The notes below the pieces were generated by a model. That model ran no database searches. It had not been told where the DNA came from and saw only the letters and a program-made list of their open reading frames with translations. From contig JBDROZ010000043.1 of assembly GCA_043809585.1 (NCBI GenBank), forward strand, positions 1 through 32,638: DNA of 32,638 bases, written 5' to 3'. Origin of the DNA: Candidatus Eiseniibacteriota bacterium (lineage in GTDB: Bacteria > Orphanbacterota > Orphanbacteria > Orphanbacterales > Orphanbacteraceae). Positions 7,798 through 22,857 of this stretch are shown piece after piece. Position numbers and translations under genes: made by a program. Each line of letters opens with the position of its first letter. Position 1 is the first letter of the stretch.

Positions 7798-7895
7798 ACC
7801 CCGCTCATTTCAAAGCGATGAGTCCGGGACGGCTGTTGTATAATGTAGAGGTGCTTGCGTCGCTTCCCCTGCCCGACCCATCCGGAAGGAGTCCC

Positions 7896-10800
7896 GTGCG
7901 CCACCTGATTTCCGCGGCCGTCGCCGCCCTCTTTCTCGTCCCCTCCCTCTCCCCCGGCGGGACGCCGTCGCCGGAGGATTGGCGGGACCAGTCGATTTAC
8001 CAGATCATGACCGACCGGTTCTTCGACGGCGACCCCTCGAACAACGCCGTGGAGGGGAACTACGACCCGAACGACGGCTACAAGATCCACGGCGGCGATT
8101 GGGCGGGCATCGAGGCGAAACTGGACTACATCCGCGGACTCGGCATGACGGCACTCTGGATCTCGCCGGTCCAGAAGAACGCCTACGCCGACTACCACGG
8201 CTACTCGATTCAGAACTTCTACGAGATGGCCCCCCACTTCGGCGGGATGGCGGACCTCCGCTCCCTCGTCGACACGCTGCACGCCTCGGGCATGTACATG
8301 ATCCTCGACGTGATCGCGAACCACGGCGCGAATCTGATCGACTCGGCCGACCCGGACTGGCCCGCCTATCACGACCCGGGGGACTACACGCTCCGGTGGA
8401 CGAACCCGTCGAAGAGGCACGCCCCCCCCTTCGACGATCTCTCGCTCTTCCACAACCATGGGCACATCGGCGACTACAGCGACCCGGAGCAGATCCTCGG
8501 CGAGCTTTGGGGGCTCGACGACTTCGCCACCGAACTGCCCGCGGTCCGGGGCGCGCTGATCGAGGCGCACCGGTGGCTCATCGACACGGTCGACGCCGAC
8601 GGCTTCCGCATCGACACGGTGAAGCACGTGGAGCTCGACTTCTGGCAGGAGTGGGGACCGGCGATCACGGCGTACACCGACTCGATCGGGAAGGCCGGCT
8701 TCTTCCAGTTCGGCGAGATTTTCGACGGGTCGAGCTGGAAGAACGGCATCTACACGGGGACCCAGGCGGGCGGGCCTTTCGCTCTCGAGTCGACCCTTTG
8801 GTACCCGATGTTCTTCGCGTCCGGGTGGGTCTTCAAGGACGGCGGGCCGACGGAGGCCCTCGACTGGGTGTACGGCGACTCGACCTACTACGACCCGACC
8901 GCGCGGAATCGTCTCGTGAAGTTTCTGGACAACCACGACAACGCGCGCTTCATGGGATTCGGGTCCGCCGCGGACCGGGACGAGGCGAAGGCGATGGTCG
9001 CACAGGCGTGGATGTACTCCTCCCTCGGCGTCCCCTGCATCTACTACGGGTCGGAACAGGAATTCGACGGGGGCGGCGACCCGTGGGACCGGGAGGACAT
9101 GTGGGACGGGGGGTGGGACTTCGGCCCGTCCGAGGGGGACAACTTCGACCAGGCCGCCCCCCTCTACCGGCGGATCCGGCGGATGAACGAGATGCGCCGC
9201 CAGCTCCCGGCCCTCCGGCGGGGGGCGCAGCGGCGGCTCGCGGGCGCGCCCGGTCCGGGCCTCTACGCTTACGTGCGGACAATGGCGGGGGAGTCGCCGG
9301 TGGTGGTCGCCTTCAACACGAAGAAGGAGGCGGACACGCTCGCCGTCCCGACGGGCCTCCCCGCCGGAACCGCGTACGATCTTCTCTCGGAGCGTACGGT
9401 GACCGTCCTTCCGGGCGGCGCCGTCCACGTCGTCGTCGGCGGGATGTCCGCGGTGTGGCTCGCGCCGGAACCGCCCGATCCCGCCCCATGGGTGGAGCGG
9501 ACATGGCCCGCCCACGACGGCGTCTTCCCGGGGCTCCGAGGCCGGATCGAGATCGCCTTCACGGAGCCTATGGACGAAGCGTCGGTCGAATCGAACATCA
9601 CCGCCCTTCCCCCCTTCGCCTACGGCGCCTCATGGACGGGCAACACGCTCGTGCTCTTTCCGGACGCCGACCTCGCCGACCAGACGACCTACACGGTGAA
9701 GATCGGATCCCCCGCGGCGGCGGCGGACGGAGACCCCCTCGGCGCGTCGTTCACCTTCTTCTTCCGCGTCGACGGAGGGGCGGCCCCGGTCGCCGTCCCC
9801 ACCGGATACCTCGCCGCGGCGATCCCGGGGGACGACCTTAGGACCCCCCTCTCCCTCGCCGCGGACGGCGGCGGGCGGCTCTTCCTCGGCGACACGGGGT
9901 GGGACCGGATCTACCGCACCAACGACACATGGAAGGTCGAGACGGCCGTGGCCGACTCTCTCGTCAAGAGACCGAACGGGATCGCCTTTGACCGGGAGGA
10001 GGGGCTCTTCGGCGGCGACCTCCTGATCTCCGACTCGGGGGGGCTTCTCCGGGTTGCGGGGGAGGGGGACGACGGGGGACTCGTCCGGAAGATCGCCGCC
10101 TGGCCGGGCGGGGGGACGACGTGGGCCCTCGCCGTCGACCGGGCGGGCGGATTCGGCGGGAGGGCGTATGTCGGTTCCCCCTCTTCCTCCTCCCTCTACG
10201 CGGTCGACGGAAACGGAACCGTTTCGGTCTTCGCCGGCGGTCTCGGCTCGGTGACCGGCCTCGCCTTCTCCGAGGGGGGGCCCTTCGGCGAATTCCTCTA
10301 CGCCGCGGACGGGAGCGGGTCGGTCCGGCGGATCGACGCCTCGGGCGTCGTCACCACCTTCACGAACGACGGAACTCTCCTCGGCGGCGCGGCGGCCCTC
10401 GCCTTCGACGGGACCGGGCTCTTCGGCGGGGACCTCTTCGCCGTGAACCCGACCCGGCAGGAGATCGTGCGCATCGAGCCCACGGGCGCGGTCTCCTCCT
10501 TCGCCTCCGGGTTCGGGTCCCTCTCGGGCCCGGGCGGCCTCGCCTTCGCCGGGCTCGGCGATCTCTATGCCGTCGAGACGGGCGCGACGGGAAGCCCCCG
10601 GATCGTCAAGATCGCCGCCGCCGATGCGGACACGGGGGTCCCCGGCAGTGATCCGGCGCCCCCTCCGACGCACCGTTTCCTTCTGGGGGGCAACCGGCCG
10701 AACCCGTTCAACCCGGAGACGGCGATCTCCTTCGAGCTCCCGAAGCCGGGGCGGGCGCTCCTTACGATCCACGACATCCGGGGGGCCCTCATCCGCACGC

Positions 10801-10949
10801 TCGTGGACGCCGACCTCGGGGACGGCCCCCACGAGAAGACATGGGACGGCACGAACGACGAAGGGCGCGGCGCCGCCTCGGGAATCTACTTCTCGCGCCT
10901 CCGCTACAAGGGGCTGGAAGAGACGAAGCGGATGGTCCTCCTCCGGTAG
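7896..10949 (+). CDS. Secreted GH13 alpha-amylase family glycosidase with Ig-like (Big_5), beta-propeller and FlgD-Ig C-terminal domains
   Basis: Probable GTG start at 7896 after AAGGAG, with a signal peptide. IYQIMTDRF.DGD, YHGY, ILDVIANH, catalytic DGFRIDTVKH, GEIF, FLDNHD; FTEPMD..SV Ig domain; NRPNPFNPET...SGIYF..KRMVLLR C-terminal domain. Confidence 0.93.
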   Translation: MRHLISAAVAALFLVPSLSPGGTPSPEDWRDQSIYQIMTDRFFDGDPSNNAVEGNYDPNDGYKIHGGDWAGIEAKLDYIRGLGMTALWISPVQKNAYADYHGYSIQNFYEMAPHFGGMADLRSLVDTLHASGMYMILDVIANHGANLIDSADPDWPAYHDPGDYTLRWTNPSKRHAPPFDDLSLFHNHGHIGDYSDPEQILGELWGLDDFATELPAVRGALIEAHRWLIDTVDADGFRIDTVKHVELDFWQEWGPAITAYTDSIGKAGFFQFGEIFDGSSWKNGIYTGTQAGGPFALESTLWYPMFFASGWVFKDGGPTEALDWVYGDSTYYDPTARNRLVKFLDNHDNARFMGFGSAADRDEAKAMVAQAWMYSSLGVPCIYYGSEQEFDGGGDPWDREDMWDGGWDFGPSEGDNFDQAAPLYRRIRRMNEMRRQLPALRRGAQRRLAGAPGPGLYAYVRTMAGESPVVVAFNTKKEADTLAVPTGLPAGTAYDLLSERTVTVLPGGAVHVVVGGMSAVWLAPEPPDPAPWVERTWPAHDGVFPGLRGRIEIAFTEPMDEASVESNITALPPFAYGASWTGNTLVLFPDADLADQTTYTVKIGSPAAAADGDPLGASFTFFFRVDGGAAPVAVPTGYLAAAIPGDDLRTPLSLAADGGGRLFLGDTGWDRIYRTNDTWKVETAVADSLVKRPNGIAFDREEGLFGGDLLISDSGGLLRVAGEGDDGGLVRKIAAWPGGGTTWALAVDRAGGFGGRAYVGSPSSSSLYAVDGNGTVSVFAGGLGSVTGLAFSEGGPFGEFLYAADGSGSVRRIDASGVVTTFTNDGTLLGGAAALAFDGTGLFGGDLFAVNPTRQEIVRIEPTGAVSSFASGFGSLSGPGGLAFAGLGDLYAVETGATGSPRIVKIAAADADTGVPGSDPAPPPTHRFLLGGNRPNPFNPETAISFELPKPGRALLTIHDIRGALIRTLVDADLGDGPHEKTWDGTNDEGRGAASGIYFSRLRYKGLEETKRMVLLR

Positions 10950-11012
10950 GGAACGGCTAGTCAAGCCCTCTTTCCGGGCCTCGGGTGCAGGATCCGGGGC
11001 CGTTTCCTCTGG

Positions 11013-11052
11013 TTAATTATTGTTGACATTGTCCGGGCGGACCTGATATAGT
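11013..11052 (+). promoter_or_regulatory. Strong sigma70-type promoter for the Cys-repeat/radical SAM locus
   Basis: AT-rich UP-like element TTAATTATTG, perfect TTGACA (11023-11028), 18 nt, TG-n-TATAGT (11044-11052). Confidence 0.75.
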
Positions 11053-11166
11053 TTCCTGGTCGAATACATCATCGTGCTTCATCACTCGCATCCAGACGCG
11101 CCTTACGGACGATCGGGTCTTTTCTACGCTCCGACTGCCCTCCACCCCCGGACACCAGGAGGGAGC

Positions 11167-11346
11167 ATGTTTTCGCGCTCGAGACCCCGGACCGACAACT
11201 CCCTCGCGCGGGCGTCCTTCGCCATGCCGGAGGCGCAACCCCCGACCACGCATCTTCCCCATTCGATTCACGCCAATACCGGCCGGTCGCGGCCGTTCCG
11301 ATTCATGCGGCACAACGCAAATTCGACGGGAGGGCTTGTTCCATGA
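11167..11346 (+). CDS. Putative 59-aa small ORF translationally coupled to the Cys-repeat gene
   Basis: SD AGGAGG at 11157-11162, ATG at 11167, high GC3 over the first ~20 codons; its TGA overlaps the next ATG (ATGA, 11343-11346). Confidence 0.4.
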   Translation: MFSRSRPRTDNSLARASFAMPEAQPPTTHLPHSIHANTGRSRPFRFMRHNANSTGGLVP

Positions 11347-12416
11347 AGCGTCGCGGGTTTATTCGATTCCTGCCCCTCTGGGCCATCGGAGGCTCCGTGG
11401 CGATGCGGTCTCTCGCCGCGAGCCTCATCGGGCTGCTCTTCTCGAAGAAGGGAGAGTCGGCCGGGCCGGAGCACATCCGGATGATCGGCGGGGAAGATCA
11501 GAACGTCGCCTCTGAAAAGACGAAGTGCCGCTCCACGGAGATGACGGGAGAGATCCCCCACGGATGCAGCAGCCCGGAGTACATCGCGAGCGGCGACAGC
11601 TGCACCGACACGATCCAGAAGAACCTGTGCGAGAGCCCGATCCAGATCGAGAACTGCCAGACCCGGGAGCAGGCCGAGCGGTGCGTAAGCGAGAACCAGA
11701 TCAACCGGTGCTACAACACCACACAGCACAACAACTGCACGATCGAGTCGCAGTGGAACCGCTGTGAGAACCAGGCCCTGTACGATCAGTGCACCTCCAC
11801 GAAGCAGATGATGGAGAAGTGCACGACCCCGGAGCAGCACAACCTGTGCACGACGGAGCGCCAGTACAACAACTGCGAGAGCGTCGAAAATAAGAACAAG
11901 TGCAGCTCCGTCGCCCAGCTCGAACAGTGCAGCACGGACAAACAGAAGAACAACTGCAAGAGCCCCGTGCAGGTCGACAACTGTCAGAACTCCACGCAGA
12001 TCAGGAAGTGCGAGACCACCGCCCAGTGGGAACAGTGCACGAGCGCGAAGAACAAGAACATGTGCGACTCGCCCACCCAGTACAACAACTGCAGCAGCAC
12101 CGAGCACCTCGACCAGTGCTCCAACGATACGTCCAAACTGAAATGCAAGAGCACCGCGCAGATCAACAACTGCCCGAATCCGAGCCGGATCGACGAGTGC
12201 AAGAACGACACGAACGTCGGCCAGTGCACGAGCAAGAACCTGCTCAAGAAGGTCAACAAGTGCACGACTCCGGCCCTGGGCGAGTCATGCACGAACTTCA
12301 ACGCGAAGGACTCCTGCACGAGCGCAACGCAGATCATGGGATGCGTCACGGGCGTGCAGATCAAGACGATCCGGGGGAATTGCAGCAGCAGGCTGCAGAA
12401 GCAGTACTCGGGATAG
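11343..12416 (+). CDS. Twin-arginine Cys-rich repeat protein (31 Cys, 9-residue period); putative radical SAM substrate/RiPP-like precursor
   Basis: SD GGGAGG. N-terminus KRRGFI plus a hydrophobic stretch. 25 of 30 Cys-Cys spacers are exactly 8 aa; high GC3; directly upstream of an rSAM/SPASM gene. Confidence 0.85.
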   Translation: MKRRGFIRFLPLWAIGGSVAMRSLAASLIGLLFSKKGESAGPEHIRMIGGEDQNVASEKTKCRSTEMTGEIPHGCSSPEYIASGDSCTDTIQKNLCESPIQIENCQTREQAERCVSENQINRCYNTTQHNNCTIESQWNRCENQALYDQCTSTKQMMEKCTTPEQHNLCTTERQYNNCESVENKNKCSSVAQLEQCSTDKQKNNCKSPVQVDNCQNSTQIRKCETTAQWEQCTSAKNKNMCDSPTQYNNCSSTEHLDQCSNDTSKLKCKSTAQINNCPNPSRIDECKNDTNVGQCTSKNLLKKVNKCTTPALGESCTNFNAKDSCTSATQIMGCVTGVQIKTIRGNCSSRLQKQYSG

Positions 12417-12452
12417 CCGCCCCCGCCTGGCGCGGCGCGCATGAGGAGACGC

Positions 12453-13943
12453 ATGATCGAACCGGCACGACGGGAATCGGAAACCCCTCCGGTCGGGAAG
12501 GAACCCGCCGGGGGGGCGAAAGGACCCTCCCTCCATTTCTTCGAGGTCGAGGGAGCGCGCCACGTGTTCGACCCCGAGAGCGGCCGCTTCTTCCGGATCG
12601 ACGAGGCGGCGGAGCTCGCCATCCGTCTCTTCCAGGAGCGCGCCCCGGAAGAGGAGATCCGGAGACGGCTCTCGGATGCTTTTCCGCCGGGCCCGGCGGA
12701 AAGCGCGCTCCGGGAAGTGTCCGATCTCGTGGCGAAGGGACTCCTCTGCGCGAGGCGGCAAGAACCGGAAGAGAAGCCCGCGCGGGGGGCGGTCAAACCC
12801 CGCATGGTGTCGGTCACTCTCAACGTGGTCTCCTCCTGCAACCTCTCCTGCATCTACTGCTGGAACAAGGGGGGCACCTACGGGAGGACGACGCGGGAGA
12901 AGCGGATGACCGCGGAGACGGCGATCCGCGCGATCGACCTCGCGGTCCTGAACTCCTTGGAGACCGACCAGATCCTCATCGACTTTTACGGCGGAGAGCT
13001 GCTTCTTAACTTCGAGGTGCTCCGGGCCGCCATGGAGCACTGCGAGAAGATCTCGAAGGAGACGAAGCGGACCTTCTCGTACAAAGTGACGACCAACGGG
13101 ACCCTTCTGACCGAAGAGATGGTCGCCTTCTTCGACAGGATGGGCGTCTCCCTCGGGGTCAGCATCGACGGGACGAAGAAGATCCACGACCGGAACCGGC
13201 CCTTCCCTGACGGCAAGGGGACGTGGAAGGAGATCCAGAAGAACATCAGGGCGGCGGTGGAGGCGGGGAACATCCACGTCTCCGCCCGGGCGACCCTCGT
13301 CCCCCCCGACCTCGACATGGTGAAGGCGCTGAAGGGACTCTTCCGCCTCGGCTTCCGGGACACGGAGATCGAGTTCGCCTCCGAGCCGTGCGAGCTCTTC
13401 AACCCGAACGGCACGGTGAAATTCAGCGACGCCGACATCGACAGAATGAAAGAGGAGTACCTGAAGTTCGCCAAGTTCTACCTGGGCTACGCCCTTCACG
13501 GGGACGAGGCGATCGACGTGGGGATCAGCAACAACCTGACGCGGGTCCTCCACGAAAGCCACCGCTTTTCCCCCTGCGGGGCGGGGAGCAATTTCGCCTG
13601 CGTCACCGAGGAGGGGAACCTCTACCCGTGCATGGGATTCATCGGGATGCCGGGCTACAAGCTGGGAACCGTGGAGTCGGGGTTCGACATCGAGAAGCTC
13701 GAGTCCTTCCGGCACGACATGAGAACCGTGGTCTTCGAGGCGGAGGAGTGCGACGGCTGCTGGGCCCGCTACGTCTGCGCCGGCAACTGCCCCGCCAACA
13801 ACGTGCAGTACAACCAGAAGATCTTCGAGCCCCACAAGCGGAGCTGCGACTGGCTGAAGTTTCAGCTCGAGACGGCCATGTGGGTCGCGTCGGAGCTGCA
13901 GAGGAAGAAACCGGACCGGCTCGCGGGATACGAGCCGGCCTGA
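12453..13943 (+). CDS. Radical SAM/SPASM peptide maturase with an N-terminal RRE (PqqD-like) domain; CteB/QhpD/anSME-like
   Basis: CNLSCIYC (CX3CX2C), FYGGEL, TTNGTLL, VSIDG...HDRNR; SPASM C-x12-G-x4-C ... CX2CX5CX3C-x18-C; N-terminal FFEVEGARHVFDPESGRFFRIDE followed by helices. ATG 12453 has SD GAGGAG; 12441 is an alternative start. Confidence 0.93.
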   Translation: MIEPARRESETPPVGKEPAGGAKGPSLHFFEVEGARHVFDPESGRFFRIDEAAELAIRLFQERAPEEEIRRRLSDAFPPGPAESALREVSDLVAKGLLCARRQEPEEKPARGAVKPRMVSVTLNVVSSCNLSCIYCWNKGGTYGRTTREKRMTAETAIRAIDLAVLNSLETDQILIDFYGGELLLNFEVLRAAMEHCEKISKETKRTFSYKVTTNGTLLTEEMVAFFDRMGVSLGVSIDGTKKIHDRNRPFPDGKGTWKEIQKNIRAAVEAGNIHVSARATLVPPDLDMVKALKGLFRLGFRDTEIEFASEPCELFNPNGTVKFSDADIDRMKEEYLKFAKFYLGYALHGDEAIDVGISNNLTRVLHESHRFSPCGAGSNFACVTEEGNLYPCMGFIGMPGYKLGTVESGFDIEKLESFRHDMRTVVFEAEECDGCWARYVCAGNCPANNVQYNQKIFEPHKRSCDWLKFQLETAMWVASELQRKKPDRLAGYEPA

Positions 13944-14000
13944 CCGGGAACCGGGGAATAAGAGAACGGGAGCGCCCGAGGCTCCGAAGGGGTGGATGCC

Positions 14001-15911
14001 ATGAATGGGAATCGCGTAACGAACCGGAGAAGGGGCCGGGGGGAGCCCGATCCGCGGTTCCGCGGCTCTCGGCTCGGAGCCGTGCTCTTCTCGTGCGCCC
14101 TCGCGGCGGTCCTGCTCGCTCCGGGTTCCGCCCGGTGCATCGCCGATCTCACGGTGATGCAGGGCTTCCACGAGCCGATCGCGGAAGCGGGCGGAGAGTT
14201 CCTGATGGACTTCCAGGTCCTGAACCTCGGTCCCGATTCCACGTCGATCAGCGGCATCTCGAACTACGTCTTCCTCTGGGACCCGGCCCTGGAGGATCCC
14301 CTGGCTCAGCTCAGCCCCGTGACCGGCCACAATGTCCATATCTGGCGATCCCTCGCGCCGGGCGAGATCGTCCTGGTCGGCCCCTTCACGGTGACGATCC
14401 CCTGGGACACGCCGCTCGACACGGTCGTCACGGTGGCGATCGCCACGGACTGGCTCGACTTCGAGGTGGAGCCGAACGAGACGAACAACATGGTCATGTT
14501 CGACGTCCCCGTCGAACCCCTCACGATGAGTCTCGGTCCCGGGGGCGCCTCGTTTTGCGACACCCTCGGGGAACCCGGAGCGGTCCATCGATATCAATTC
14601 TCGGGTACGCCGGGGCAGATGGTCTTTGCCGAGACTTTCGGTGAAGGTCTCCAGTCCTTCCTCGATCTTTACTCCCCCTCCTCCGGGGAGGGCCTCGCGG
14701 GGGACGGCGACATCGAAGAGATCGGGGAGAGGAGCCGGATCAGCTACATCGATCTCCCCCTCCCGGAACAGTACCGCATCGCCCTCGGGGGGAGGGGTGA
14801 TGCCGGCGGTCCGTACTGCCTGCTCCTGCAGGAGGGTCTGCCCGAGCTCGAGCCGAACGACGACTTCGGTTCGGCGGGCCTCCTTCCGATCGGCCATGTG
14901 GCCTACGGGACCCTCGGCTATCCGGGGGACGCCGACTACTACATGATTCAGGCTCCGCCCGGCCGGATCGTCACGATCGACGTGGACGCCGACGAGGCGC
15001 TCGAGGCTCTTCCCGACTCGACGCTCGATCCCCAGATCGCCATCTTCGGCCCGGGCAGCGAACCGTTCGAGGTCGTCGACGACACCTACGAGTACGACCC
15101 CCACTTCTCCTTCGTCATTCCCGATCCGGGTCCTTACTTCTTCAAGATCGAGGGCCCGCCGGGAGACGGCGTGGGAGGCGGATACCCCGAACATGGTTAC
15201 GTGGTGCGGCTCCGGGACGACGGACCGGCCACCCAGGATCTCCTGGCGGAGAACGTTACGCCCGCCGGGGAACCGTGGTACATGGACTGCCCCATGCAGC
15301 TCGACTTCACGGTGACCAACGTCGGCGGGAACCGCACCTACGCCGGGGTTGTGACGGTGACGATCGTTCTCTCGAACGACCCGCTCCTCGATCCTCTCGA
15401 CACGCTCCTCGCGGTGGGCGACTTCCTCGGAGACCTGGAGGCGGGGGAGACCACGAGCCGGACCGTCTTCGTCACGGTTCCGCCCGAGTGGAACGAATCG
15501 GCGGCTTACGTCGGCATCGTCGTCGATCCGACGGAGAGCGAGGTGGAGACGGATGAGACGAACAACTCCCTCCTCGTCCCGGTCCTCATCGATCCCTCGC
15601 AGATCGGAACCGGAACAAGCGGCGCGGTTCCCTCCGTGAACGCCCTCCATCCCAACCGGCCGAACCCGTTCAATCCGGCGACGGGCATCGGCTTCTCGCT
15701 GGAGAGACCGTCGAGGGCCGTCGTGAGGATCTTCGACACGGCGGGCCGCGAGGTTCGAACCCTGGTCGACGCGGACCTCCCCGCCGGTCCCCACTCGGTC
15801 TCCTGGGACGGCAGGAACGACCGGGGCCAGGAGGTCTCCACGGGAATCTACTTCTATCGGCTGGAAGCGGGCGACTTCCGGAGCACCCACAAGATGGCGC
15901 TTCTTCGCTGA
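14001..15911 (+). CDS. Secreted multidomain protein: CARDB - PPC-like - PPC-like - CARDB - FlgD-Ig C-terminal domain
   Basis: Signal peptide (LGAVLFSCALAAVLLAPGSARC); two DL..V...E.[ND]ETNN CARDB-type motifs; ELEPNDD..A...GD.DYY PPC motif; NRPNPFNP.T...TGIYFYRL..HKMALLR C-terminus. No catalytic motif seen. Start is 14001 or 13992. Confidence 0.8.
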   Translation: MNGNRVTNRRRGRGEPDPRFRGSRLGAVLFSCALAAVLLAPGSARCIADLTVMQGFHEPIAEAGGEFLMDFQVLNLGPDSTSISGISNYVFLWDPALEDPLAQLSPVTGHNVHIWRSLAPGEIVLVGPFTVTIPWDTPLDTVVTVAIATDWLDFEVEPNETNNMVMFDVPVEPLTMSLGPGGASFCDTLGEPGAVHRYQFSGTPGQMVFAETFGEGLQSFLDLYSPSSGEGLAGDGDIEEIGERSRISYIDLPLPEQYRIALGGRGDAGGPYCLLLQEGLPELEPNDDFGSAGLLPIGHVAYGTLGYPGDADYYMIQAPPGRIVTIDVDADEALEALPDSTLDPQIAIFGPGSEPFEVVDDTYEYDPHFSFVIPDPGPYFFKIEGPPGDGVGGGYPEHGYVVRLRDDGPATQDLLAENVTPAGEPWYMDCPMQLDFTVTNVGGNRTYAGVVTVTIVLSNDPLLDPLDTLLAVGDFLGDLEAGETTSRTVFVTVPPEWNESAAYVGIVVDPTESEVETDETNNSLLVPVLIDPSQIGTGTSGAVPSVNALHPNRPNPFNPATGIGFSLERPSRAVVRIFDTAGREVRTLVDADLPAGPHSVSWDGRNDRGQEVSTGIYFYRLEAGDFRSTHKMALLR

Positions 15912-15921
15912 TCGGAAACGG

Positions 15922-16074
15922 CCATTCCGGGTTCTCTTTCCGGGGGCCTTTGGGGGACACAATACCGAATAGGTGATTCGGGGGACACAATACCGAATCG
16001 GAGTTCCGTATTGTGTCCCCCCGCCCAGGAGTTCCGTATTGTGTCCCCCCGCCCATTCCGGGTTCTCTTTCCGG
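15922..16074. repeat. Nested REP-like palindrome cluster flanked by a 22-bp direct repeat
   Basis: CCATTCCGGGTTCTCTTTCCGG at 15922-15943 and 16053-16074. GGGGGACACAATACCGAAT at 15952 and 15980. GGAGTTCCGTATTGTGTCCCCCCGCCCA in tandem at 16000 and 16028. 14-bp inverted arms GGGGGACACAATAC/GTATTGTGTCCCCC. Confidence 0.9.
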
Positions 16075-16217
16075 CCCCGGGCGCGAGTCCGGGGCCTTTT
16101 CTCGGTTCAGGGGAGGAAAGGACGATTCCGGCAGTCGAGCAAGGGGAGACCGGCGGGCTGGTTTCCCCATGACGTCCTCTCGGTCCGGGGCCGCCCCTGT
16201 CGGCCGCACTCCCCTCC

Positions 16218-16246
16218 TTGCCGGACTGGTTCCGGACCGGTACACT
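16218..16246 (+). promoter_or_regulatory. sigma70-type promoter
   Basis: TTGCCG (16218-16223), 17 nt, TACACT (16241-16246), about 40 nt before ATG 16286. Confidence 0.55.
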
Positions 16247-16285
16247 CGGTCCGATCGTCCGTCGCAGAGTGGGGGAATGTGAGTC

Positions 16286-18232
16286 ATGTTCGAGTTCATG
16301 CGGGGGAAAGAGACGCTTCTCGGGGCGGTGCTCGTCACGGCGCTCGCCCTGCTTCCCTATGCCGGCACCCTCGGCAACGATTTCGTCTGGGCGGACCAGA
16401 CGGTGATCGTCGACGGCGAGGCGATCCTGAAATCGCCGGGCGATCTCGCCCGGGTCTTCGTGAAGCCCCTCTGGTCATTCACGGGCGCGCCCGCCCCCGG
16501 GGGGGGCGGATACTACCGGCCGGTGACGGCGATTTCCTACACCATCGACCACGCGCTTTGGGGATTGAACCCGGCGGGGTATCACGCCACGAACATCCTG
16601 CTTCACGGAGCGGTCACCCTCTTTCTCTTTCTCTTCTTCGCAGGGCTCTTCCCGAAGAGCCGGGTCCCTCTCCTCGCCGGAATCCTCTTCGCCGTCCACC
16701 CGATCCATACGGAGGCGGTCGCGTGGATTTCGGGACGCACGGGGCTGCTCGCCGCCCTCGGCGTCGTCCTCTCCCTCTTCCTCTACCGGCGCCCCGGGAA
16801 CCGCCCCCTCTTTCTCGCGGGGAGTCTCGCCGCCTTCGCTCTCGGCCTCGGCGCGAAGGAGAGCGCCGCGGTCCTCCCCCTCCTGGTCCTCCTCACGGCC
16901 TGGTGGTCGAGGAAGCCGGGCCGGCGTCTTTTCGCGTGGAACCGGGAAGGGCTCTATTTCGCCCTCCTGGTTCTCTACCTCGTCGTCCGGCGGGGCGCCC
17001 TCGGCGCCTTCGGCACCGGGAACCCCGAGACCATCGAACCCCTCGTCCTCGTCCCGACCATGCTCCGGGCGCTGGGCGGCTACCTTCGTCTCCTCTTCAT
17101 CCCCTGGCCGCTCCACACGAACGACGGGATCCGCCTCTCGACGTTCGTGCTCGAACCGAAAGTTCTTCTCTCCCTCCTTTTCCTCGGGGCCTTCGTCTAC
17201 GCCGTCCTCCGGTACGGCCGGGACCGGCGGGAGACGAGGTTCGGTCTCCTCTGGATGGGGGTCGCGCTCCTCCCCTTTCTGAACGTCCTTCCCCTCCTCC
17301 ACTTCCGAGCGGAGCGACTCATCTACCTCCCATCGGCCGGATTCGTCCTCGTGGCGGCGGCCCTCCTCGACCGGTGGGGGGACCGCATCCTCGGCAAAGG
17401 GAAGCGTCTCGGCCTCACCCCGGGTGAACTGGCGACCGCCACCCTCGCCCTCCTCCTCGCCTTCGGCACCGCGGCCCGATGCCGGACCTGGAAGAACGAC
17501 TACACCCTCTTCATGGACACTCTCGCCAAGAACACCTACGCGCCGGAAGCGTGCTACATGCTCGGCGCCGAGGCCTACCGGAACGGCGCCTACCCCGAAG
17601 CGGCCCGTCTCTTCCGTGCCTCCCTCTCCCTCGAACCCGGGTGGGCGGCCTACCTCCCCGTACCGTGGGCCCTGGCGAACCTCGGGTTCGCGGAGTACAA
17701 AGGCGGCGATCCGGAGAGCGCCGAGGAGGCGTTCCGGGAGGCCCTCCGCTTCTATCCGGGGATGGAGAAGGCCTCTTTCGGCTTGGCTCTCGCCGCTTCG
17801 GCCTCCGGCCGGCACGAGGAATCGATCGAGAGCTACCAGGCGATCCTGGCGAAAAACCCGAACCACGAGGACGCGAGGTACAATCTCGCTCTCGAATATG
17901 AGAAGTCGGGCGCCTTGGCGGACGCGGAACGGGAGTACATCCGGGTCGTGCGGCAGAACCCGCGCCGGAAGGACGCCTTCATGAACTTGGGATCCCTCGT
18001 CGCCCAGTCGGGACGGTACGCGGAGGCGATGGAAGCGTATCGGGGCGCCCTCCGGGTGGCCCCGGCGGACCCCCGGGTCCACTACAACGTGGGCCTGCTC
18101 TTCGCCGTTACCGGCGAGAGAAAAGGGGCTATCGAGGCCCTCCGCACCGCCCTCGAGTTCGATCCCGGCTACGAAGAAGCGCGCCTCCTCCTCGAGGAGA
18201 TCACCGCCCCCGATTCGCTGCCGGGGGGTTGA
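16286..18232 (+). CDS. TMTC-like GT-C membrane glycosyltransferase with C-terminal TPR repeats
   Basis: YYRP, YH..N..LH, LFAVHPIHTEAVAWISGR, AKES, AERLIYLPS and W.N...LF motifs; multiple TM helices; about 6 TPR units. Confidence 0.88.
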   Translation: MFEFMRGKETLLGAVLVTALALLPYAGTLGNDFVWADQTVIVDGEAILKSPGDLARVFVKPLWSFTGAPAPGGGGYYRPVTAISYTIDHALWGLNPAGYHATNILLHGAVTLFLFLFFAGLFPKSRVPLLAGILFAVHPIHTEAVAWISGRTGLLAALGVVLSLFLYRRPGNRPLFLAGSLAAFALGLGAKESAAVLPLLVLLTAWWSRKPGRRLFAWNREGLYFALLVLYLVVRRGALGAFGTGNPETIEPLVLVPTMLRALGGYLRLLFIPWPLHTNDGIRLSTFVLEPKVLLSLLFLGAFVYAVLRYGRDRRETRFGLLWMGVALLPFLNVLPLLHFRAERLIYLPSAGFVLVAAALLDRWGDRILGKGKRLGLTPGELATATLALLLAFGTAARCRTWKNDYTLFMDTLAKNTYAPEACYMLGAEAYRNGAYPEAARLFRASLSLEPGWAAYLPVPWALANLGFAEYKGGDPESAEEAFREALRFYPGMEKASFGLALAASASGRHEESIESYQAILAKNPNHEDARYNLALEYEKSGALADAEREYIRVVRQNPRRKDAFMNLGSLVAQSGRYAEAMEAYRGALRVAPADPRVHYNVGLLFAVTGERKGAIEALRTALEFDPGYEEARLLLEEITAPDSLPGG

Positions 18233-19530: not shown

Positions 19531-22500
19531 TCAGGAGCCGAAGAGCGCGGGGCATCCCCGGCGGTGACGGCAGAACTCGCAGTTTCGGTTCTCCCGGGCC
19601 GGGAACTCCCCTCCTGCTTCGATCCGGTCGTACTCCTCGAGCGCGGCGAGCGCGGCCGCTCCCTCTTCCGGAACCTCGAGGAGAAGCCCGTCCCGGGCGG
19701 CGTGCATCCACGCGCGCACCGGCCTTCCGTCGCCGGCGATACGGCCGACGGCGAGACGGTAAAGCTCGAGGGAGACCCGGTAACGATCCAGAATCTCCTC
19801 CGGCGAGGCGCGGTCGGTCTTGTAGTCGATCACCACCCACTCCCGGTCGGATCGAAGCAGAAGATCGATGATCCCCCGGAGAGGCCGTCCGGCGAGAGGG
19901 ACGCAGAAGGAGACCTCTCCTTCCGGGACCGCCCCCGACGAGAGGAGTCCCTTGATCTCGGGCAACCGGAAGAAACCTACCTTCCACGCCGCCAGTTCTT
20001 CCGGCTCCCCCTCGGAGGGCGCGGGCGCGCCATTCCAGTGCGCCTCCATGAGGCGGTGGAAGGCGGTGCCCGTCGCCGCCGCCCGCTCTCCTTCCCCCGC
20101 CGGCGCGAGGGGCGGAATCGGGAATTCCCGGGCGAGCCGGGACCGCCGGGGACACTCGAGGAGGGCTCTTACCCCCGTGACGGTCCGCCCGTCCTCGTCC
20201 GGTTCGGACGAAGGCGAGGGGGCCCGGAGCCGGCGGAGGAGAAGATCCACCGTCGCCCGGTCCCCTTCCGAAGCGTACCGGGAGGGATCGGCCGCCACCT
20301 CGGCGGGGAGAAGGGGGAACCGTTCATTGGCCCTTCCCTCCCGGGGGCCGAGCACCCGGACCGGCACATCGCCCAGCAGGGTGACGCCCGGCTCCTCCGG
20401 CAGGGGCCACGCTTCGTGGATCCGCTTCAGCCAGCCTCTCGGTCCTTTCTCGCTCCGCCCCCCCGAGAGAATCAAGTGCCGCTGGGCCCGGGTGAGCGCC
20501 ACGTAGAGGAGGCGGATCTCCTCCGCCGTCTCCCGCCGCTTCTGCTCCTCCTCGATCCGGCCGACGAGCCAGGGGCGGCCCTTCTCCCCCTCCCTCGCCC
20601 GGGCCTTCACTCCCACGCCCCACTCCTTGTGGTAGACGAACGCGGGCCTCGTCGATTGGGGGGGGCGGCCGAGATCGACGACGGCGACGAGCGGGAACTC
20701 CATCCCCTTCGCGCCGTGGATCGTGAGCAGGCGGACCGCCTCCCGCTCCGCGTCGAGGGCGGACTCCGGCTCCCGGAGTCTCGTGTACCGGAACTCCCTC
20801 AGGCGGCGGATGCTCTCCGGGAGAGAAAGGTCGGCCCTCTCCTCCAGGGCCCGGGCCCGCTCGATCAGTTTCCGGACGTTCGCCCGCTGCCGGAGGCCGT
20901 CCGGCGCGAGAAGGAGGGCGTCGACGAAGCGCGTTTCCCGGGCGAGCGCCTCCAGAAGATAGTGGGAGGGGACGCGCCCCCGGAGGTCCCGGAGGCGGCC
21001 GATGGTGTCCGCGAAACGGCGGACCCTCTCCCGCCCATCCGGGGAGAGAGGCCCGGCCGGCTTGTCCTCCCGGACAAGGTCCCAGAGGGGCTCCTTCCGC
21101 CGGACACCGCCGGGGGCGACGAGGAGGGCCAAGTCCTCGTCGCCGAGACCCGCCAGGGGGGACCGGAGCGCCGCCGCCATGAGAAGGTCTTCGTAGGGAT
21201 TCTCCATCAGGGAGAGCCCGTTCAGGAGGTCCGTCACCTCCCGCGTCTGGAAGAAACCCCGCCCCACGGCGACCGACGCGGGGACGCCCCGCATCCGGAG
21301 GCGCCGCTCGTACCGGGCGATGTCGGTTGTGCTCCGAAAGAGGAGCGCCATGTCCCTGTAGCGGATCCCATCGAGCCCCTCCTCGTGGATTTCCCGGAGG
21401 CGGCGGGCGAGGAGGTCGGCCTCTCCGTCACGGGCGGCCTCGGCATTCGGGCCGGCGGCGATGAGCAGCTCCACCGAGGGGGCTTCCTTCGGCGCGAACT
21501 CCTCTTCCTTCCCCGCCTCGAGACGCTCGTACGGGACGGACATCGCCTCGTTCTCCTTCCAGAGGGAAGGGAAGAGGGTGTTCACGAACTCGAGGATCGG
21601 CTTCCGGCTCCGGAAATTCTCCTCCAGAACGAGGCGCCCCTCGGCGGCGACCATCCGCTCCCCCATGCGGACGAAGGCGTCGACGTCCGCGTCCCGGAAG
21701 GCGTAGATCGACTGCTTCGCGTCCCCCACCGCGAGGAGTCGGCCCTGGTTCCTGAGGTTTTCCACGATGCGGAGTTGGAGCTCGTTCGTATCCTGGCACT
21801 CGTCGAGCAGGAGATATCGGTAGCGGCCGCGAACCTCCCGCCGGGGCCCCTCCTCCTCCAGAATGCGGAGCGCCGCTTCCTCCAAGTCGAGGAAGTCGGC
21901 GACGCCGGCCCGGCGCTTTTCTTCGTCGAAGGCGTCCCGGAACTCGCGGGCCATCTCGTGGAGAAGACGCCGGGGACCTTCGAGAGAGGCCTCGCCGGCG
22001 ACGGCGATCCCCGTGTCGATCGAGGCGAGGGCGGAGCGGAGGAGTTCTTTCGCGTCGTTCGCCACCCGGAGATCGACGGCGCTCTTGATGCGGCGGAGAG
22101 CCGCGATCCCCTCCGCCCCCTCCCTCTTTGCCGAGGCGAGGCTCCGGACCGCCCTCAGTTTGTCCGCCGTCTTCGCGGGCGCCCCCCCCTCGAGGAGGGC
22201 GTCGATCTCCGGCATCAATCGGTCGATCTCCATCCACACCTCTCTGAGGGGGGTGCCGAGATCGGGAACGAAGGGGACTTCCTCGAGGTCCCGGCCGGCG
22301 GTGCGCACCGCGCGGACGAGGGAGAAGAGTGGGGCGGGATCGACGCCCCCCGGCGCGGCGGCGTCCACCCGCCAGTCGAGTCGGCCGATCAAACCGAGAA
22401 GGTCCTCCGGCCTCTCTTCCCACCACCGGTCGAGAAGCAGGACCCAAATCCGCTCCTGCCACTCCCCCGCCTCGGCCGGGTCCAGGATGCCCACCGTCGG

Positions 22501-22857
22501 CTCCACGCCGGCGATCTCGCCGTACTCCCGGACGAGCCGGTAGCAGAGGGAATCGATGGTCAGGATCGGCGCGTGGGGAATCTCCCGGAGCGAATCGACG
22601 CGCCCCTCGTCCCGGAGTGTGCCGGCGATCCGCTCCCGCATCTCCGCCGCCGCCTTTTCAGTGAACGTGATGGCGAGGAGCTTGCCGACCGGCACCTCCC
22701 GCTCGAGATGAAGGTGAAGATAGCGTGCGGTGAGCACCGAGGTCTTTCCCGAACCCGCCCCGGCGGTGACCCAGAGGTCCCGGTCGCCCGCGCCGGAGGC
22801 CTCCCTCTGGCGGTCGGTCAACCTCGAGAAGTACTCCTTTTCCGCGGGGGGGTTCAT
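19531..22857 (-). CDS. addA: AddA/UvrD-like helicase with C-terminal PD-(D/E)xK nuclease
   Basis: AGAGSGKT, AITFTEKAAAEM, LLLDECQDTN, VGDAKQSIYAFR, ENFRS, LTIHGAKGMEF, LYVALTRA, GIIDLL..IDYKT. ATGA overlap with addB. Confidence 0.92.
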   Translation of the reverse strand: MNPPAEKEYFSRLTDRQREASGAGDRDLWVTAGAGSGKTSVLTARYLHLHLEREVPVGKLLAITFTEKAAAEMRERIAGTLRDEGRVDSLREIPHAPILTIDSLCYRLVREYGEIAGVEPTVGILDPAEAGEWQERIWVLLLDRWWEERPEDLLGLIGRLDWRVDAAAPGGVDPAPLFSLVRAVRTAGRDLEEVPFVPDLGTPLREVWMEIDRLMPEIDALLEGGAPAKTADKLRAVRSLASAKREGAEGIAALRRIKSAVDLRVANDAKELLRSALASIDTGIAVAGEASLEGPRRLLHEMAREFRDAFDEEKRRAGVADFLDLEEAALRILEEEGPRREVRGRYRYLLLDECQDTNELQLRIVENLRNQGRLLAVGDAKQSIYAFRDADVDAFVRMGERMVAAEGRLVLEENFRSRKPILEFVNTLFPSLWKENEAMSVPYERLEAGKEEEFAPKEAPSVELLIAAGPNAEAARDGEADLLARRLREIHEEGLDGIRYRDMALLFRSTTDIARYERRLRMRGVPASVAVGRGFFQTREVTDLLNGLSLMENPYEDLLMAAALRSPLAGLGDEDLALLVAPGGVRRKEPLWDLVREDKPAGPLSPDGRERVRRFADTIGRLRDLRGRVPSHYLLEALARETRFVDALLLAPDGLRQRANVRKLIERARALEERADLSLPESIRRLREFRYTRLREPESALDAEREAVRLLTIHGAKGMEFPLVAVVDLGRPPQSTRPAFVYHKEWGVGVKARAREGEKGRPWLVGRIEEEQKRRETAEEIRLLYVALTRAQRHLILSGGRSEKGPRGWLKRIHEAWPLPEEPGVTLLGDVPVRVLGPREGRANERFPLLPAEVAADPSRYASEGDRATVDLLLRRLRAPSPSSEPDEDGRTVTGVRALLECPRRSRLAREFPIPPLAPAGEGERAAATGTAFHRLMEAHWNGAPAPSEGEPEELAAWKVGFFRLPEIKGLLSSGAVPEGEVSFCVPLAGRPLRGIIDLLLRSDREWVVIDYKTDRASPEEILDRYRVSLELYRLAVGRIAGDGRPVRAWMHAARDGLLLEVPEEGAAALAALEEYDRIEAGGEFPARENRNCEFCRHRRGCPALFGS

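Follow-up and report, generated by a model that had tools for sequence, protein, structure and literature searches.

The gene at 11343..12416 (+ strand) encodes a 357-residue protein with 31 Cys that is read here as a protein-scale, ranthipeptide-like (RiPP-like) substrate carrying about one thioether per repeat (probability about 0.6). It lies in the window, which is the whole 32,638-nucleotide stretch of Candidatus Eiseniibacteriota contig JBDROZ010000043.1 that was analyzed. This precursor gene is followed by a gene for a radical SAM-SPASM enzyme with a predicted RRE (12441-13943), which is called the maturase below, and by a gene for a secreted beta-sandwich protein (13992-15911). From the repeat grammar of the precursor and its conservation, the gene order, the co-occurrence of precursor and enzyme, and the family resemblance of the enzyme, we infer crosslink formation, crosslink number, acceptor, export, and function.

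The precursor gene and its cassette

The Cys-repeat core of the precursor (11526..12413, +) spans residues 62-357 and comprises 296 residues in approximately 31 units. The codon of the first Cys, C62, starts at 11526, and that of the last, C347, ends at 12383. The protein is very polar (GRAVY -1.0), with almost no hydrophobic core residues. The precursor matched no family in Pfam or NCBIfam, with none from NCBIfam even at E <= 10, and a literature search found no description of the precursor/enzyme family.

The upstream alpha-amylase gene (7818-10949) ends in a terminator-like hairpin at 10977..11001 (+; 10 pairs, 7 GC; pattern match only). A candidate sigma-70-like promoter at 11023..11052 (+) consists of TTGACA, an 18-nt spacer, and TATAGT, with a TG before the second hexamer. 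Its 11 of 12 hexamer matches are likewise a pattern match only, and it is the sole site that a consensus scan found in 10900-16400, where shuffles average 0.5. The Shine-Dalgarno sequence GGGAGGG (11328..11334, +) stands 8 nt before the ATG, and a GGAGG-like Shine-Dalgarno block is all that aligns among the five upstream regions compared. For a riboswitch or leader RNA in the 5′ region of approximately 290 nt, Rfam gave only a chance-level match (E 0.58). A second terminator-like hairpin lies 3′ of the third gene at 16073..16096 (+; 10 pairs, 9 GC, then a T-run; pattern match only). The cassette contains no protease or exporter gene, and no further conserved candidate peptide gene was seen in it.

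The N-terminal segment of the precursor (residues 1-34; 11343..11444, +) combines an RR-x-F-[IL] motif with a hydrophobic stretch and is a putative export signal or membrane anchor. R3, R4, F6, P11, L12, W13, I15, and G16 are invariant, and the hydropathy window is positive from approximately residue 9 to 33. The segment appears Tat-like by its motif only: the Tat-signal profiles PF10518 and TIGR01409 gave no match at E <= 10 on four to six N-termini, and a genome-wide PF10518 scan at the same threshold returned 11 other places, with the precursor N-terminus not among them. The genome encodes TatC (PF00902, 213.8 bits) on contig C72.

A putative leader recognition motif, P-E-H-I-R-M-I-G-G (residues 42-50; 11466..11492, +), in which H44, I48, and G49 are invariant, is predicted to dock on the RRE of the maturase. 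In the co-fold, residues 42-50 of the precursor contact residues 49-61 and 85-96 of the enzyme, within the PqqD/RRE region, with a score of 0.79 against 0.44 for the best control. The co-fold mark is reached by 116 of 157 solved complexes versus 2 of 215 mismatched pairs; the runs share at least 53% of contacts, and partner pLDDT is at least 36. A CteB-leader complex has already been solved (5WGG), so the docking pass may reflect likeness to that structure.

The third cassette gene (13992..15911, +) encodes a signal peptide, a CARDB domain, a beta-sandwich, a PPC domain, a second CARDB domain, and a FlgD_ig/Por_Secre_tail-like C-terminal domain, as assigned with Pfam. Its AF2 model is all-beta (pLDDT 60.8) and retrieves generic Ig/MG domain strings only in Foldseek. 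Full-length homologs were seen in the same cassettes only. A role as leader protease was rejected, since neither Pfam nor the fold revealed a catalytic domain.

Orthologs and co-occurrence

Precursor orthologs are present at four other loci, L002, L003, L004, and L012, at 36-42% identity. Across the five orthologs, each of the 31 Cys columns is conserved without exception and the irregular spacers always fall at the same places; two of the five carry one extra, non-conserved Cys for a total of 32. The first-pass annotation had taken the odd Cys count to rule out full intramolecular disulfide pairing. The count holds for the 31 invariant columns, but the argument is weak because two of the five orthologs have 32 Cys. 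The order precursor, radical SAM enzyme, beta-sandwich protein recurs at L002, L003, and L004, and L012 has the precursor followed by the radical SAM gene; the genes flanking the cassette differ among loci.

Of the 10 genomes from the window’s phylum, only the one that contains the window has the precursor and the radical SAM enzyme. Among 208 genomes from the L002 phylum, four carry the precursor, and the same four carry the enzyme at E <= 1e-50. The 218 genomes searched, from two phyla, thus include five with both precursor and enzyme and none with one alone. A metagenome scan added nothing new, and the proteins at L005 and L006 are those of L003 and L004. Eight of the 12 phmmer matches (P0002, P0003, P0005, P0006, P0007, P0008, P0011, and P0012) were rejected as compositional look-alikes, mostly eukaryote-like simple repeats, and P0001, P0004, and P0010 come from genuine family members but are fragments, either truncated or frame-broken. 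The remaining match, P0009, is a separate 9-residue Cys-repeat protein.

The maturase

The maturase (12441..13943, +) is a 500-residue enzyme, read as RRE-radical SAM-SPASM, that matches PF04055 with an E-value of 3.1e-15. Its CxxxCxxC radical-SAM cluster motif (12837..12860, +), formed by C133, C137, and C140, aligns to the CteB motif and is invariant in the four orthologs. The SPASM half (13389..13847, +) contains eight invariant Cys: C317, C379, C397, C437, C440, C446, C450, and C469. Seven of these align with CteB Cys, and C317 stands opposite a CteB Val in the alignment read by hand. Pfam SPASM gave no match in the window maturase at E <= 0.01, and PF13186 is precomputed for some of its homologs. 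The PqqD match that marks the putative RRE, at residues 42-98 (E 0.001, 19.8 bits), falls below the 23.4 cut-off, and this region aligns to the CteB N-terminal domain.

CteB (5WGG/5WHY), the thioether synthase of the SCIFF peptide CteA (thermocellin), is the best solved relative of the maturase (E 2.1e-60 over residues 31-484), in an alignment that covers RRE, radical SAM, and SPASM regions; anSME is the second best (E 1.5e-13). The top NCBIfam models are nif11 rSAM (253 bits), SCIFF maturase (TIGR03974; 247 bits, cut-off 425), PapB (245.2 bits, cut-off 340), and QhpD (237.5 bits, cut-off 453), so that three of the four are thioether-forming families, and the maturase does not reach the curated cut-off of any thioether family in NCBIfam. 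We know of no established chemistry for the nif11-type maturase of the top model. In the clade of the enzyme, approximately 19 clusters share at least 56% identity and six more share 42-47%, after which identity falls to 34%; on these identities, the maturase would form a clade of its own.

Six CteB positions described as being in catalytic proximity, F112, F152, T186, S210, H363, and Q364 (PMC10288494, as far as available), were mapped onto the maturase by hand from the alignment. T217 and S241 are identical, W141 and Y183 are other aromatics, and M398 and G399 differ, which leaves four of the six positions unlike CteB.

The repeat grammar

Cys spacings in the precursor run 13, 12, 9x7, 10, 9x15, 12, 9x3, and 13, which gives 25 regular nine-residue units. 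The hand count of 31 Cys and 25 regular units in the first-pass annotation proved exact on the ORF at 11343-12416, and its description of the positions around each Cys was reproduced on recount. The residue at Cys+2 is Ser (15), Thr (7), Asn (7), or Asp (1) in 30 of 31 cases, irregular spacers included, with a single Ile at C132. Of the 25 regular units, 16 have Gln at Cys+5, as do 19 of all 31 Cys contexts, and Cys+7, earlier called mostly N/D/E, is N/D/E in 21 of 25 (N11 E5 D5). When the non-Cys residues of the repeat region were permuted with the Cys fixed, none of 20,000 shuffles reached the observed count at +2 (30; shuffle mean 12.4), +5 (16; shuffle mean 2.6), or +7 (21; shuffle mean 6.1).

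The same grammar is present in the four orthologs. Among 124 regular units pooled from five proteins (the precursor and its four orthologs), S/T/N/D is found at +2 in 111 (S60 T28 N18 D5), Gln at +5 in 73, and N/D/E at +7 in 90, including N43 and D34. Position +3 holds D/E in 41 units and P in 15, and position +4 is led by E (24) and A (23), with D/E in 27. Asp and Glu are common at +3 and +4, yet none of the 124 regular units has either of them at +5, although their background frequency is 15%.

Over all 155 Cys contexts, S/T/N/D stands at +2 in 135 (87%), N/D/E at -2 in 108 (70%), and Gln at +5 in 93. Among the 30 contexts that are irregular or terminal, S/T/N/D is kept at +2 in 23 and Gln at +5 in 18, and N/D/E is found at +7 in 5; where spacing is irregular, N/D/E tracks the next Cys at -2, not +7. 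Only +2 and +5 stay with their own Cys through the irregular and terminal units. The unit therefore appears to read best as [NDE]-x-C-x-[STND]-x-x-Q-h. The first Cys has T/L/Y/M/A at -2 in the five orthologs and the last has G/K/K/K/K, neither including N/D/E, and the last keeps +2 and +5. The residue class matches in all five orthologs in 15 of 31 columns at +2, 12 at -2, and 6 at +5 (Gln), and besides Cys no position matches its class in every unit. Occupancies at +2, -2, and +5 vary independently, in counts that match independence, with no compensation between the acceptor candidates.

Mean unit similarity by lag reveals no super-period of 18 or 27 residues that would hint at a solenoid, and neighboring units are the least alike of all lags. 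Tandem Repeats Finder detects no DNA-level tandem repeat, which suggests that the pattern is maintained by selection on the protein. AF2, run on the precursor with a four-row alignment, draws short helices through the repeats at a pLDDT of 33.8 and a pTM of 0.14, so no Cys-Cys or Cys-neighbor distance in the model is trustworthy. An Atlas model of the precursor (pLDDT 0.38) and its “ALTTAQ/HEAT” structural neighbors were set aside for low confidence.

The acceptor of the sulfur

The first-pass annotation had proposed that the grammar marks the crosslink acceptor, at either +2 or +5, or else reflects a helix-capping box. The adjacent CteB-like enzyme and its strict co-occurrence with the precursor give good support to the Cys as donors for crosslinks made by an enzyme and not as a set of disulfides; the support that the grammar lends to an acceptor is indirect. 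The choice of +2 or +5 overlooked N/D/E at -2 and gives the leading role at +2 to Ser, for which we know of no precedent as a side-chain or ranthionine acceptor. As a matter of chemical inference, sulfur on Ser C-beta would form a labile hemithioacetal. In favor of +2 and +5 are the own-Cys register kept in irregular and terminal units (23/30 and 18/30) and the offsets of the CteB product. According to the available part of a review (PMC8326336), this product has a Cys32-Thr34 link (i+2, C-gamma) in vivo and a Cys32-Thr37 link (i+5) in vitro. The two CteA offsets are those of the two conserved downstream positions here, where Ser and Gln dominate instead of Thr. Cys+2 (S/T/N/D) is thus put forward tentatively as the acceptor, and Gln at Cys+5 is quite unlikely to be it. 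A thioether at the C-gamma of Gln(+5) would be akin to the link that QhpD makes at Glu C-gamma.

N/D/E two residues before the Cys could be the acceptor in the same system, with three-residue rings at C-beta or C-gamma and with S/T at +2 and Gln at +5 playing a structural part only. These [NDE]-x-C rings would follow the manner of NxxcB (Asn-x-x-Cys) or of PapB and QhpD (Asp/Glu). It is on Asn, Asp, and Glu that C-beta or C-gamma thioethers have been demonstrated, as described for NxxcA Cys23-Asn20, freyrasin Cys-Asp, and QhpC Cys-Asp/Glu (PMC8326336; PMC13692751, both in part), and PapB is described as tolerating 0-6 intervening residues in both orientations (PMC9413430, in part). N/D/E fills -2 in 108 of 155 contexts and regains its register after irregular spacers, for example with a Glu that is invariant ahead of Cys11. 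Neither the first nor the last Cys, however, has N/D/E at -2 in any of the five orthologs, and occupancy is 70% against 87% at +2. D/E at +3 (41/124) and +4 (27/124) would compete if the enzyme were carboxylate-directed with loose spacing, and the maturase falls below the cut-offs of the PapB and QhpD models. An acceptor at -2 is accordingly considered somewhat unlikely, and much the same doubt attaches to a system with no fixed acceptor position or with a different chemistry.

S/T/N/D at +2, D/E/P at +3, and N/D at +7 agree with the classical preferences for helix N-cap, N1, and C-cap positions, so the grammar may be structural. If it were purely architectural, each unit would be a one-turn helix or tight turn with an N-cap at +2, a capping-box partner in Gln at +5, and a C-cap at +7; the enzyme would link the nearest carbon or only a few sites, and the motif would not reveal the acceptor. 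By helical geometry, nine residues make 2.5 alpha-helical turns, which would face Gln(-4) and S/T(-7) to the next Cys. The AF2 model does show short helices in the repeats, yet a pLDDT of 33.8 gives them no weight. The modified motifs of CrpA end variably (CAGM, CAVD, and CPLV; PMC13692751, in part), so a repeat grammar need not mark the acceptor, and the predicted fold of CrpA is also at odds with its crosslinks in that account. The classical capping-box partner is Glu, however, and at +5 D/E occurs in 0 of 124 units against 73 with Gln; on these counts, the absence of Asp and Glu goes beyond what helix capping alone would explain. The super-period of 18 or 27 residues possible in a solenoid is absent as well. 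A grammar of architecture alone is considered somewhat unlikely.

The Cys of an exported protein could also form disulfides or serve as metal, sulfide, or Fe-S ligands, in which case the radical SAM enzyme would act on another substrate or perform another reaction, such as epimerization, C-C linkage, or Cys/Ser oxidation as in anSME. The two orthologs with an even count of 32 Cys would suit this explanation, as would the placement of the enzyme below all family cut-offs with anSME as its second-best solved relative. Cys-rich proteins beside radical SAM enzymes are also often metal-related, and the Crp genes are described, in the available part of the account, as responding to pyrite. The conserved Cys number 31, however, which is odd, and metal or cluster sites do not usually take the form of a lone Cys every nine residues with no CxxC or CxC pair. 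The enzyme is far closer to CteB, PapB, and QhpD than to anSME, at 208 versus 53.5 bits in the PDB and 245-253 versus 96 bits in NCBIfam. It co-occurs strictly with the precursor, whose own conserved motif is the one hit by the predicted RRE docking, no rival conserved peptide gene was seen in the cassette, and the upstream regions do not align. Cys in a role other than thioether donor is thus regarded as very unlikely.

Comparison with known systems

CrpA/CrpC (2026) and QhpC/QhpD are, by analogy, the closest precedents for the proposed ranthipeptide-like system. CrpC of Methanococcus voltae puts thioethers, probably ranthionines, on CrpA, a 28.8-kDa Cys-repeat protein (PMC13692751, in part). 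As described there, the two systems share a large Cys-repeat protein, an N-terminal recognition region, and an adjacent RRE-rSAM-SPASM enzyme, and fold prediction is unreliable for both repeat regions. The resemblance is one of design rather than of sequence family: CrpC belongs to TIGR04463 (cut-off 525), on which the maturase here reaches just 83.1 bits. The CrpA motif is 17 residues long, repeats 10 times, and contains C-x-x-Q/D, whereas the precursor here has approximately 25 regular nine-residue units with one Cys each. Crp is archaeal, includes the paralog CrpB, and has no RR/hydrophobic N-terminus reported in the available part of that source, while the third gene here is a different one.

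QhpD crosslinks QhpC of quinohemoprotein amine dehydrogenase (PMC7876137, in part) and resembles the maturase in combining radical SAM/SPASM with an RRE, which in the maturase is predicted. QhpC, on the same partial account, bears a leader, receives several intra-protein thioethers from Cys to side chains that substitute for a normal fold, and ends up outside the cytoplasm. Unlike the 357-residue precursor, it is a protein of approximately 9 kDa with three crosslinks to Asp/Glu, and it depends on a protease (QhpE) and an ABC exporter (QhpF); its gene lies in the qhpABCDEFG operon. A Pfam scan of the window ORFs returned none of the qhp operon genes (dehydrogenase subunits, QhpE, QhpF).

The peptide systems are more distant in size. 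SCIFF precursors have approximately 45 residues, six Cys, and one mapped crosslink, compared with 357 residues and 31 Cys here. PapA/PapB and NxxcA/NxxcB share with the present proposal a single radical SAM enzyme that makes repeated small thioether rings; freyrasin has six C-x3-D rings, and NxxcA is linked at Asn C-beta (PMC8326336, in part). Both freyrasin and NxxcA are short peptides with dedicated processing and export, unlike the precursor, and the C-x3-D spacing is not matched here, where D/E stands at Cys+4 in only 27 of 124 units. CXXX-repeat proteins (TIGR04115, PF27846) and CefB (NF038107) also place Cys at a fixed period beside a SPASM maturase, with periods of 4 and 5 rather than 9; the maturase scores 110.9 and 102.4 bits on those models, and no characterization of either was found in print. 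A language-model look-up puts PF27846 clusters first for the precursor (0.78; a lead only).

Proposed pathway and significance

The precursor would consist of the export or anchor segment (residues 1-34), the leader motif H-I-R-M-I-G (residues 44-49), and the core. In the proposed pathway, the RRE of the maturase holds the leader motif in the cytoplasm and the enzyme would then work along the core, unit by unit. A 5′-deoxyadenosyl radical would take a hydrogen from a residue near each Cys, and the Cys sulfur would join that carbon to form a thioether, giving approximately one small ring per nine-residue repeat. The stapled polar chain would be exported after crosslinking and would probably act outside the cytoplasm with the co-conserved beta-sandwich surface protein.

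It can be speculated, at low odds, that the product is a natural stapled polymer in which approximately 31 consecutive thioether rings replace the hydrophobic core. Such a chain would form a rigid rod, polar throughout and proof against proteases, that is already crosslinked when exported, and its acceptor, Ser(+2) or Gln(+5), would be new to ranthionines. If this were true, the crosslink chemistry would be new, and so would the way in which the protein fold is built.

To our knowledge, there are very few worked examples of enzyme-made thioethers on whole proteins, namely QhpC and, since 2026, CrpA. The precursor would add a much more regular and extreme case: its 31 Cys are invariant, its repeat is nine residues long, and its maturase belongs to a separate clade. 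Such regularity brings the acceptor question within easy reach of experiment, and a leader with two or three repeats should suffice as a minimal substrate. With no protease or exporter in the cassette and an export-like segment of its own, the precursor offers a test of how a crosslinked chain exits the cytoplasm. The maturase could serve as a tool for placing consecutive staples on a designed protein. If the ranthipeptide-like reading is true, the cassette would be a rare case of a peptide natural-product pathway scaled up to a whole protein.

Precursor repeat and its orthologues

The precursor is a 357-residue protein encoded at 11343-12416 on the forward strand. Its 31 cysteines extend from C62 to C347 (11526-12383, first base of the C62 codon to last base of the C347 codon) at spacings of 13, 12, 9 (seven times), 10, 9 (fifteen times), 12, 9 (three times), and 13 residues, giving 25 regular nine-residue units. 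The first-pass annotation described a grammar for these units by offset from each Cys, and a recount reproduces each of its hand counts exactly. Position +2 holds Ser (15), Thr (7), Asn (7), Asp (1), or Ile (1); of the 25 regular units, 16 have Gln at +5, as do 19 of all 31 Cys contexts; and +7, described as mostly Asn, Asp, or Glu, is so in 21 of 25. When every residue of the repeat region other than Cys was permuted and Cys stayed in place, none of 20,000 rounds attained any of the observed counts (shuffle means 12.4 at +2, 2.6 at +5, and 6.1 at +7).

The repeat region is extremely polar (GRAVY −1.02), and its 296 residues include 33 Asn, 32 Thr, 31 Cys, 30 Ser, and 28 Gln but 2 Trp and 1 Phe. 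Tandem Repeats Finder detects no DNA-level repeat in the gene; the periodicity is therefore old and maintained at the protein level, and recent expansion or an assembly artefact is excluded as its source. Within the regular run (11601-12224), similarity is lowest between adjacent units (mean BLOSUM score per position 0.32 at lag 1 versus 0.40-0.68 at lags 2-9), a pattern that would be consistent with recombination or misregistration between neighbours being selected against.

No Pfam or NCBIfam model matches the precursor. A word-indexed search of 5.8 billion proteins returned one relative, the 213-residue protein P0001, which leaves the family alignment after about residue 163; this early divergence could reflect an assembly frameshift or a truly broken gene. 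The P0001 genome is the closest relative, with an enzyme 84% identical and a third protein 77% identical to those of the window (P0014, P0021). Of the 12 matches from a full HMMER search of 1.84 billion representatives, P0001, P0004, and P0010 are fragments of true relatives, eight were set aside as compositional look-alikes, and P0009 is a different nine-residue Cys-repeat protein. P0009 (686 residues, on a short contig) carries about 30 C-terminal units of C-x-S-x-x-x-P-x-N; it is unrelated to the precursor, yet has the same period and likewise Ser at Cys+2. P0009 falls in no Pfam family and may represent a second family of nine-residue Cys-repeat proteins.

With the enzyme as query, three loci were recovered in species genomes, each with a full-length precursor orthologue just upstream of the enzyme gene. 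Scanning metagenomes recovered two of these orthologues again and nothing further, and the fifth orthologue came from a search of genomes across a phylum. In this last locus (L012), the start-codon column reads ATC (L012:1190-1192) and the closest common start codon in frame, GTG, lies 57 nt upstream, so the gene may use an unusual start codon or encode a longer N-terminus.

The orthologues share only 36-42% identity with the window precursor. All 31 Cys columns are invariant across the five, the irregular spacers fall at the same places, and two orthologues carry one additional, non-conserved Cys (total 32). Among the 124 regular units pooled from the five proteins, +2 is Ser (60), Thr (28), Asn (18), or Asp (5) in 111; +3 is Asp/Glu in 41 and Pro in 15; and +4 is Glu in 24 and Ala in 23. 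Position +5 is Gln (73), His (10), Arg (9), Lys (9), or Ala (9), and +6 is hydrophobic in 71 and Lys/Arg in 31, with Asp/Glu at neither. Position +7 is Asn (43), Asp (34), or Glu (13) in 90, and +8 is Lys/Arg in 38 and Asn in 23. The repeat shows no super-period of 18 or 27 residues.

Register is read best from the irregular and terminal contexts, in which the next spacer is not nine or the array ends (six contexts in five proteins, 30 cells). Here, +2 fits in 23 cells, +5 is Gln in 18, and +7 is Asn, Asp, or Glu in only 5, while in 17 cells one of these three residues stands two positions ahead of the following Cys. This defines the unit as [NDE]-x-C-x-[STND]-x-x-Q-h, with insertions after the h.

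Putative maturation enzyme

The enzyme gene (12441-13943, 500 residues) follows the precursor gene after a 24-nt gap. Its product contains a radical SAM core (PF04055, 3.1e-15), a weak PqqD/RRE match at residues 42-98, and eight invariant cysteines in its C-terminal half. Its best NCBIfam matches are the nif11-type maturase (253 bits), the SCIFF thioether maturase (247 bits), PapB (245.2 bits), and QhpD (237.5 bits), and all four scores lie well below the curated cut-offs. Among solved structures, it is most similar to CteB, the ranthisynthase of the SCIFF peptide (PDB 5WGG/5WHY; residues 31-484, E 2.1e-60), followed by anSME (E 1.5e-13). Its relatives fall into 19 clusters with at least 56% identity and six with 42-47%, after which identity falls to 34%; the enzyme clade is discrete and uncharacterised.

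In the SPASM half, C317 (13389-13391) aligns by eye to a Val of CteB and lies within two columns of an anSME Cys. The first auxiliary cluster of CteB is reportedly not fully protein-ligated; judged from this alignment, that of the enzyme may be, unlike CteB.

Predicted leader and N-terminal segment

The precursor N-terminus appears to consist of three parts: residues 1-34, a predicted recognition motif at 42-50, and the core from residue 62. Co-folding of the enzyme with precursor residues 1-104 scores 0.79 against 0.44 for the best control; of solved complexes 116 of 157 reach this mark, and of mismatched pairs 2 of 215 do. The PDB contains a CteB-leader complex, and this result may therefore reflect likeness rather than independent evidence. 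Contact agreement in the runs was at least 53% and partner pLDDT at least 36. The confident predicted interface places precursor 42-50 (P-E-H-I-R-M-I-G-G) on enzyme residues 49-61 and 85-96, within the RRE region, and H44, I48, and G49 of the motif are invariant.

Residues 1-34 contain an invariant R-R-x-F, an invariant P-L-W-x-I-G, and a hydrophobic stretch. In motif alone they resemble a twin-arginine (Tat) signal, and they may serve for export or as an anchor. The window's genome encodes TatC; both Tat-signal profiles fail on the precursor N-terminus, and PF10518 matches 11 other places in the genome.

Cassette and distribution

The third gene (13992-15911) encodes a signal peptide followed by successive beta-sandwich domains, namely CARDB, PPC, CARDB, and, at the C-terminus, one that is FlgD_ig/Por_Secre_tail-like. 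Neither Pfam nor fold comparison detects a catalytic domain in it, and its full-length relatives were seen only in the same cassettes. The upstream alpha-amylase (7818-10949) ends in a similar domain, as do several weak matches from other uncultured lineages; the domain looks like a lineage-wide C-terminal sorting tag.

By consensus match only, terminator-like hairpins lie at 10977-11001 and 16073-16096 and a promoter-like site at 11023-11052 (11 of 12 hexamer positions). If the promoter call is right, about 290 nt (11053-11342) separate it from the start codon, a long leader in which Rfam finds no match. The sole conserved upstream DNA across the five loci is a GGAGG-type ribosome-binding site. 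The flanking genes, among them those for the alpha-amylase, a TPR protein, an AddAB-like pair, and components of ABC transport, differ from locus to locus and have no relation to the cassette, and no protease or exporter gene lies within it. The AddA/AddB-like pair (19531-25850, reverse strand; UvrD-helicase with PD-(D/E)XK, and PD-(D/E)XK with ADDB_N) is an ordinary helicase-nuclease.

The enzyme occurs in one of ten searched species genomes of the window's phylum, the window's own, and the precursor is absent from the other nine, searched within a 61-genome set. In the phylum of L002, one of the three loci recovered with the enzyme (labelled Candidatus Krumholzibacteriota), 4 of 208 genomes carry the precursor, and exactly the same four carry the enzyme (E ≤ 1e-50). 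By this matched presence and absence, precursor and enzyme are strictly linked in both phyla, where the pair is rare and sporadic, and incomplete genomes may conceal more copies.

Candidate crosslink acceptors

According to a review (PMC8326336), CteB links Cys32 to Thr34 (i+2, C-gamma) on co-expression and Cys32 to Thr37 (i+5) in vitro, the same two offsets conserved downstream of the precursor Cys. Of all 155 Cys contexts, 135 have Ser, Thr, Asn, or Asp at +2, 108 have Asn, Asp, or Glu at −2, and 93 have Gln at +5. If all cysteines are alike, +2 and +5 are the sole positions open to every one of them; Asn, Asp, or Glu at −2 is missing before the first and the last Cys in five of five proteins. 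The residue at +2 is the leading candidate, held tentatively. Half of the +2 residues are Ser, which has no precedent as a side-chain acceptor, and on chemical grounds sulfur on Ser C-beta would give a hemithioacetal. An alpha-carbon (sactionine) link would sidestep this difficulty, but it is the ranthisynthase group that the enzyme resembles. An acceptor at −2 is somewhat unlikely, even though Asn, Asp, and Glu are the residues for which C-beta or C-gamma links are proven (PMC8326336, PMC13692751), and PapB accepts spacings of 0-6 in either orientation (PMC9413430).

Gln at +5 is an improbable acceptor. The first-pass annotation had also offered a helix-capping box, and the residue classes do match: Ser, Thr, Asn, or Asp followed by Asp, Glu, or Pro, with Asn or Asp near the unit end, can also be read as a one-turn helix with its N-cap, N1, and C-cap residues. 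However, Asp/Glu is absent at +5 against a 15% background, though frequent at +3 and +4, which is not as a capping box predicts and marks Gln as specially selected. A variable acceptor, or a different chemistry, is about as probable as −2. No non-Cys position of the repeat unit is invariant, −2, +2, and +5 vary independently of one another, and modified CrpA motifs terminate in varied residues (PMC13692751). Of the six CteB "catalytic proximity" positions described in PMC10288494 and mapped by hand, the enzyme has the identical residue at two, a different aromatic at two, and a differing residue at the remaining two. With a pLDDT of 33.8, the AF2 model calculated for the precursor is unusable.

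Relation to known systems and proposed mechanism

The nearest systems are CrpA/CrpC and QhpC/QhpD by design and CteB/SCIFF by enzyme sequence. The precursor-enzyme pair lies outside all three families; every maturase cut-off is missed and no precursor model matches the substrate; the qhp gene context is also absent around the precursor. Its new features are a nine-residue single-Cys unit that recurs at fixed positions about 25-31 times, the clade to which the enzyme belongs, an export-like segment that the precursor itself carries ahead of the leader motif, and the third gene. No description of the precursor family was found in the literature searched, and the supplements of the Crp paper (PMC13692751) contain neither "Krumholzi" nor "Eisenbacteri".

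The anatomy, conservation, and linkage of the pair and its family likeness are shown, whereas we infer that crosslinks form, how many there are and where, that the chain is exported, and what it does; we give the overall mechanism a probability of roughly 60%. The enzyme RRE would bind the H-I-R-M-I-G motif of the precursor, and the enzyme would then work through the core unit by unit, installing about one thioether ring per nine residues. These rings would provide the structure of a chain nearly devoid of hydrophobic residues. The crosslinked chain would exit the cytoplasm by way of its own N-terminal segment and, probably in partnership with the beta-sandwich protein conserved alongside it, act at the envelope or surface.
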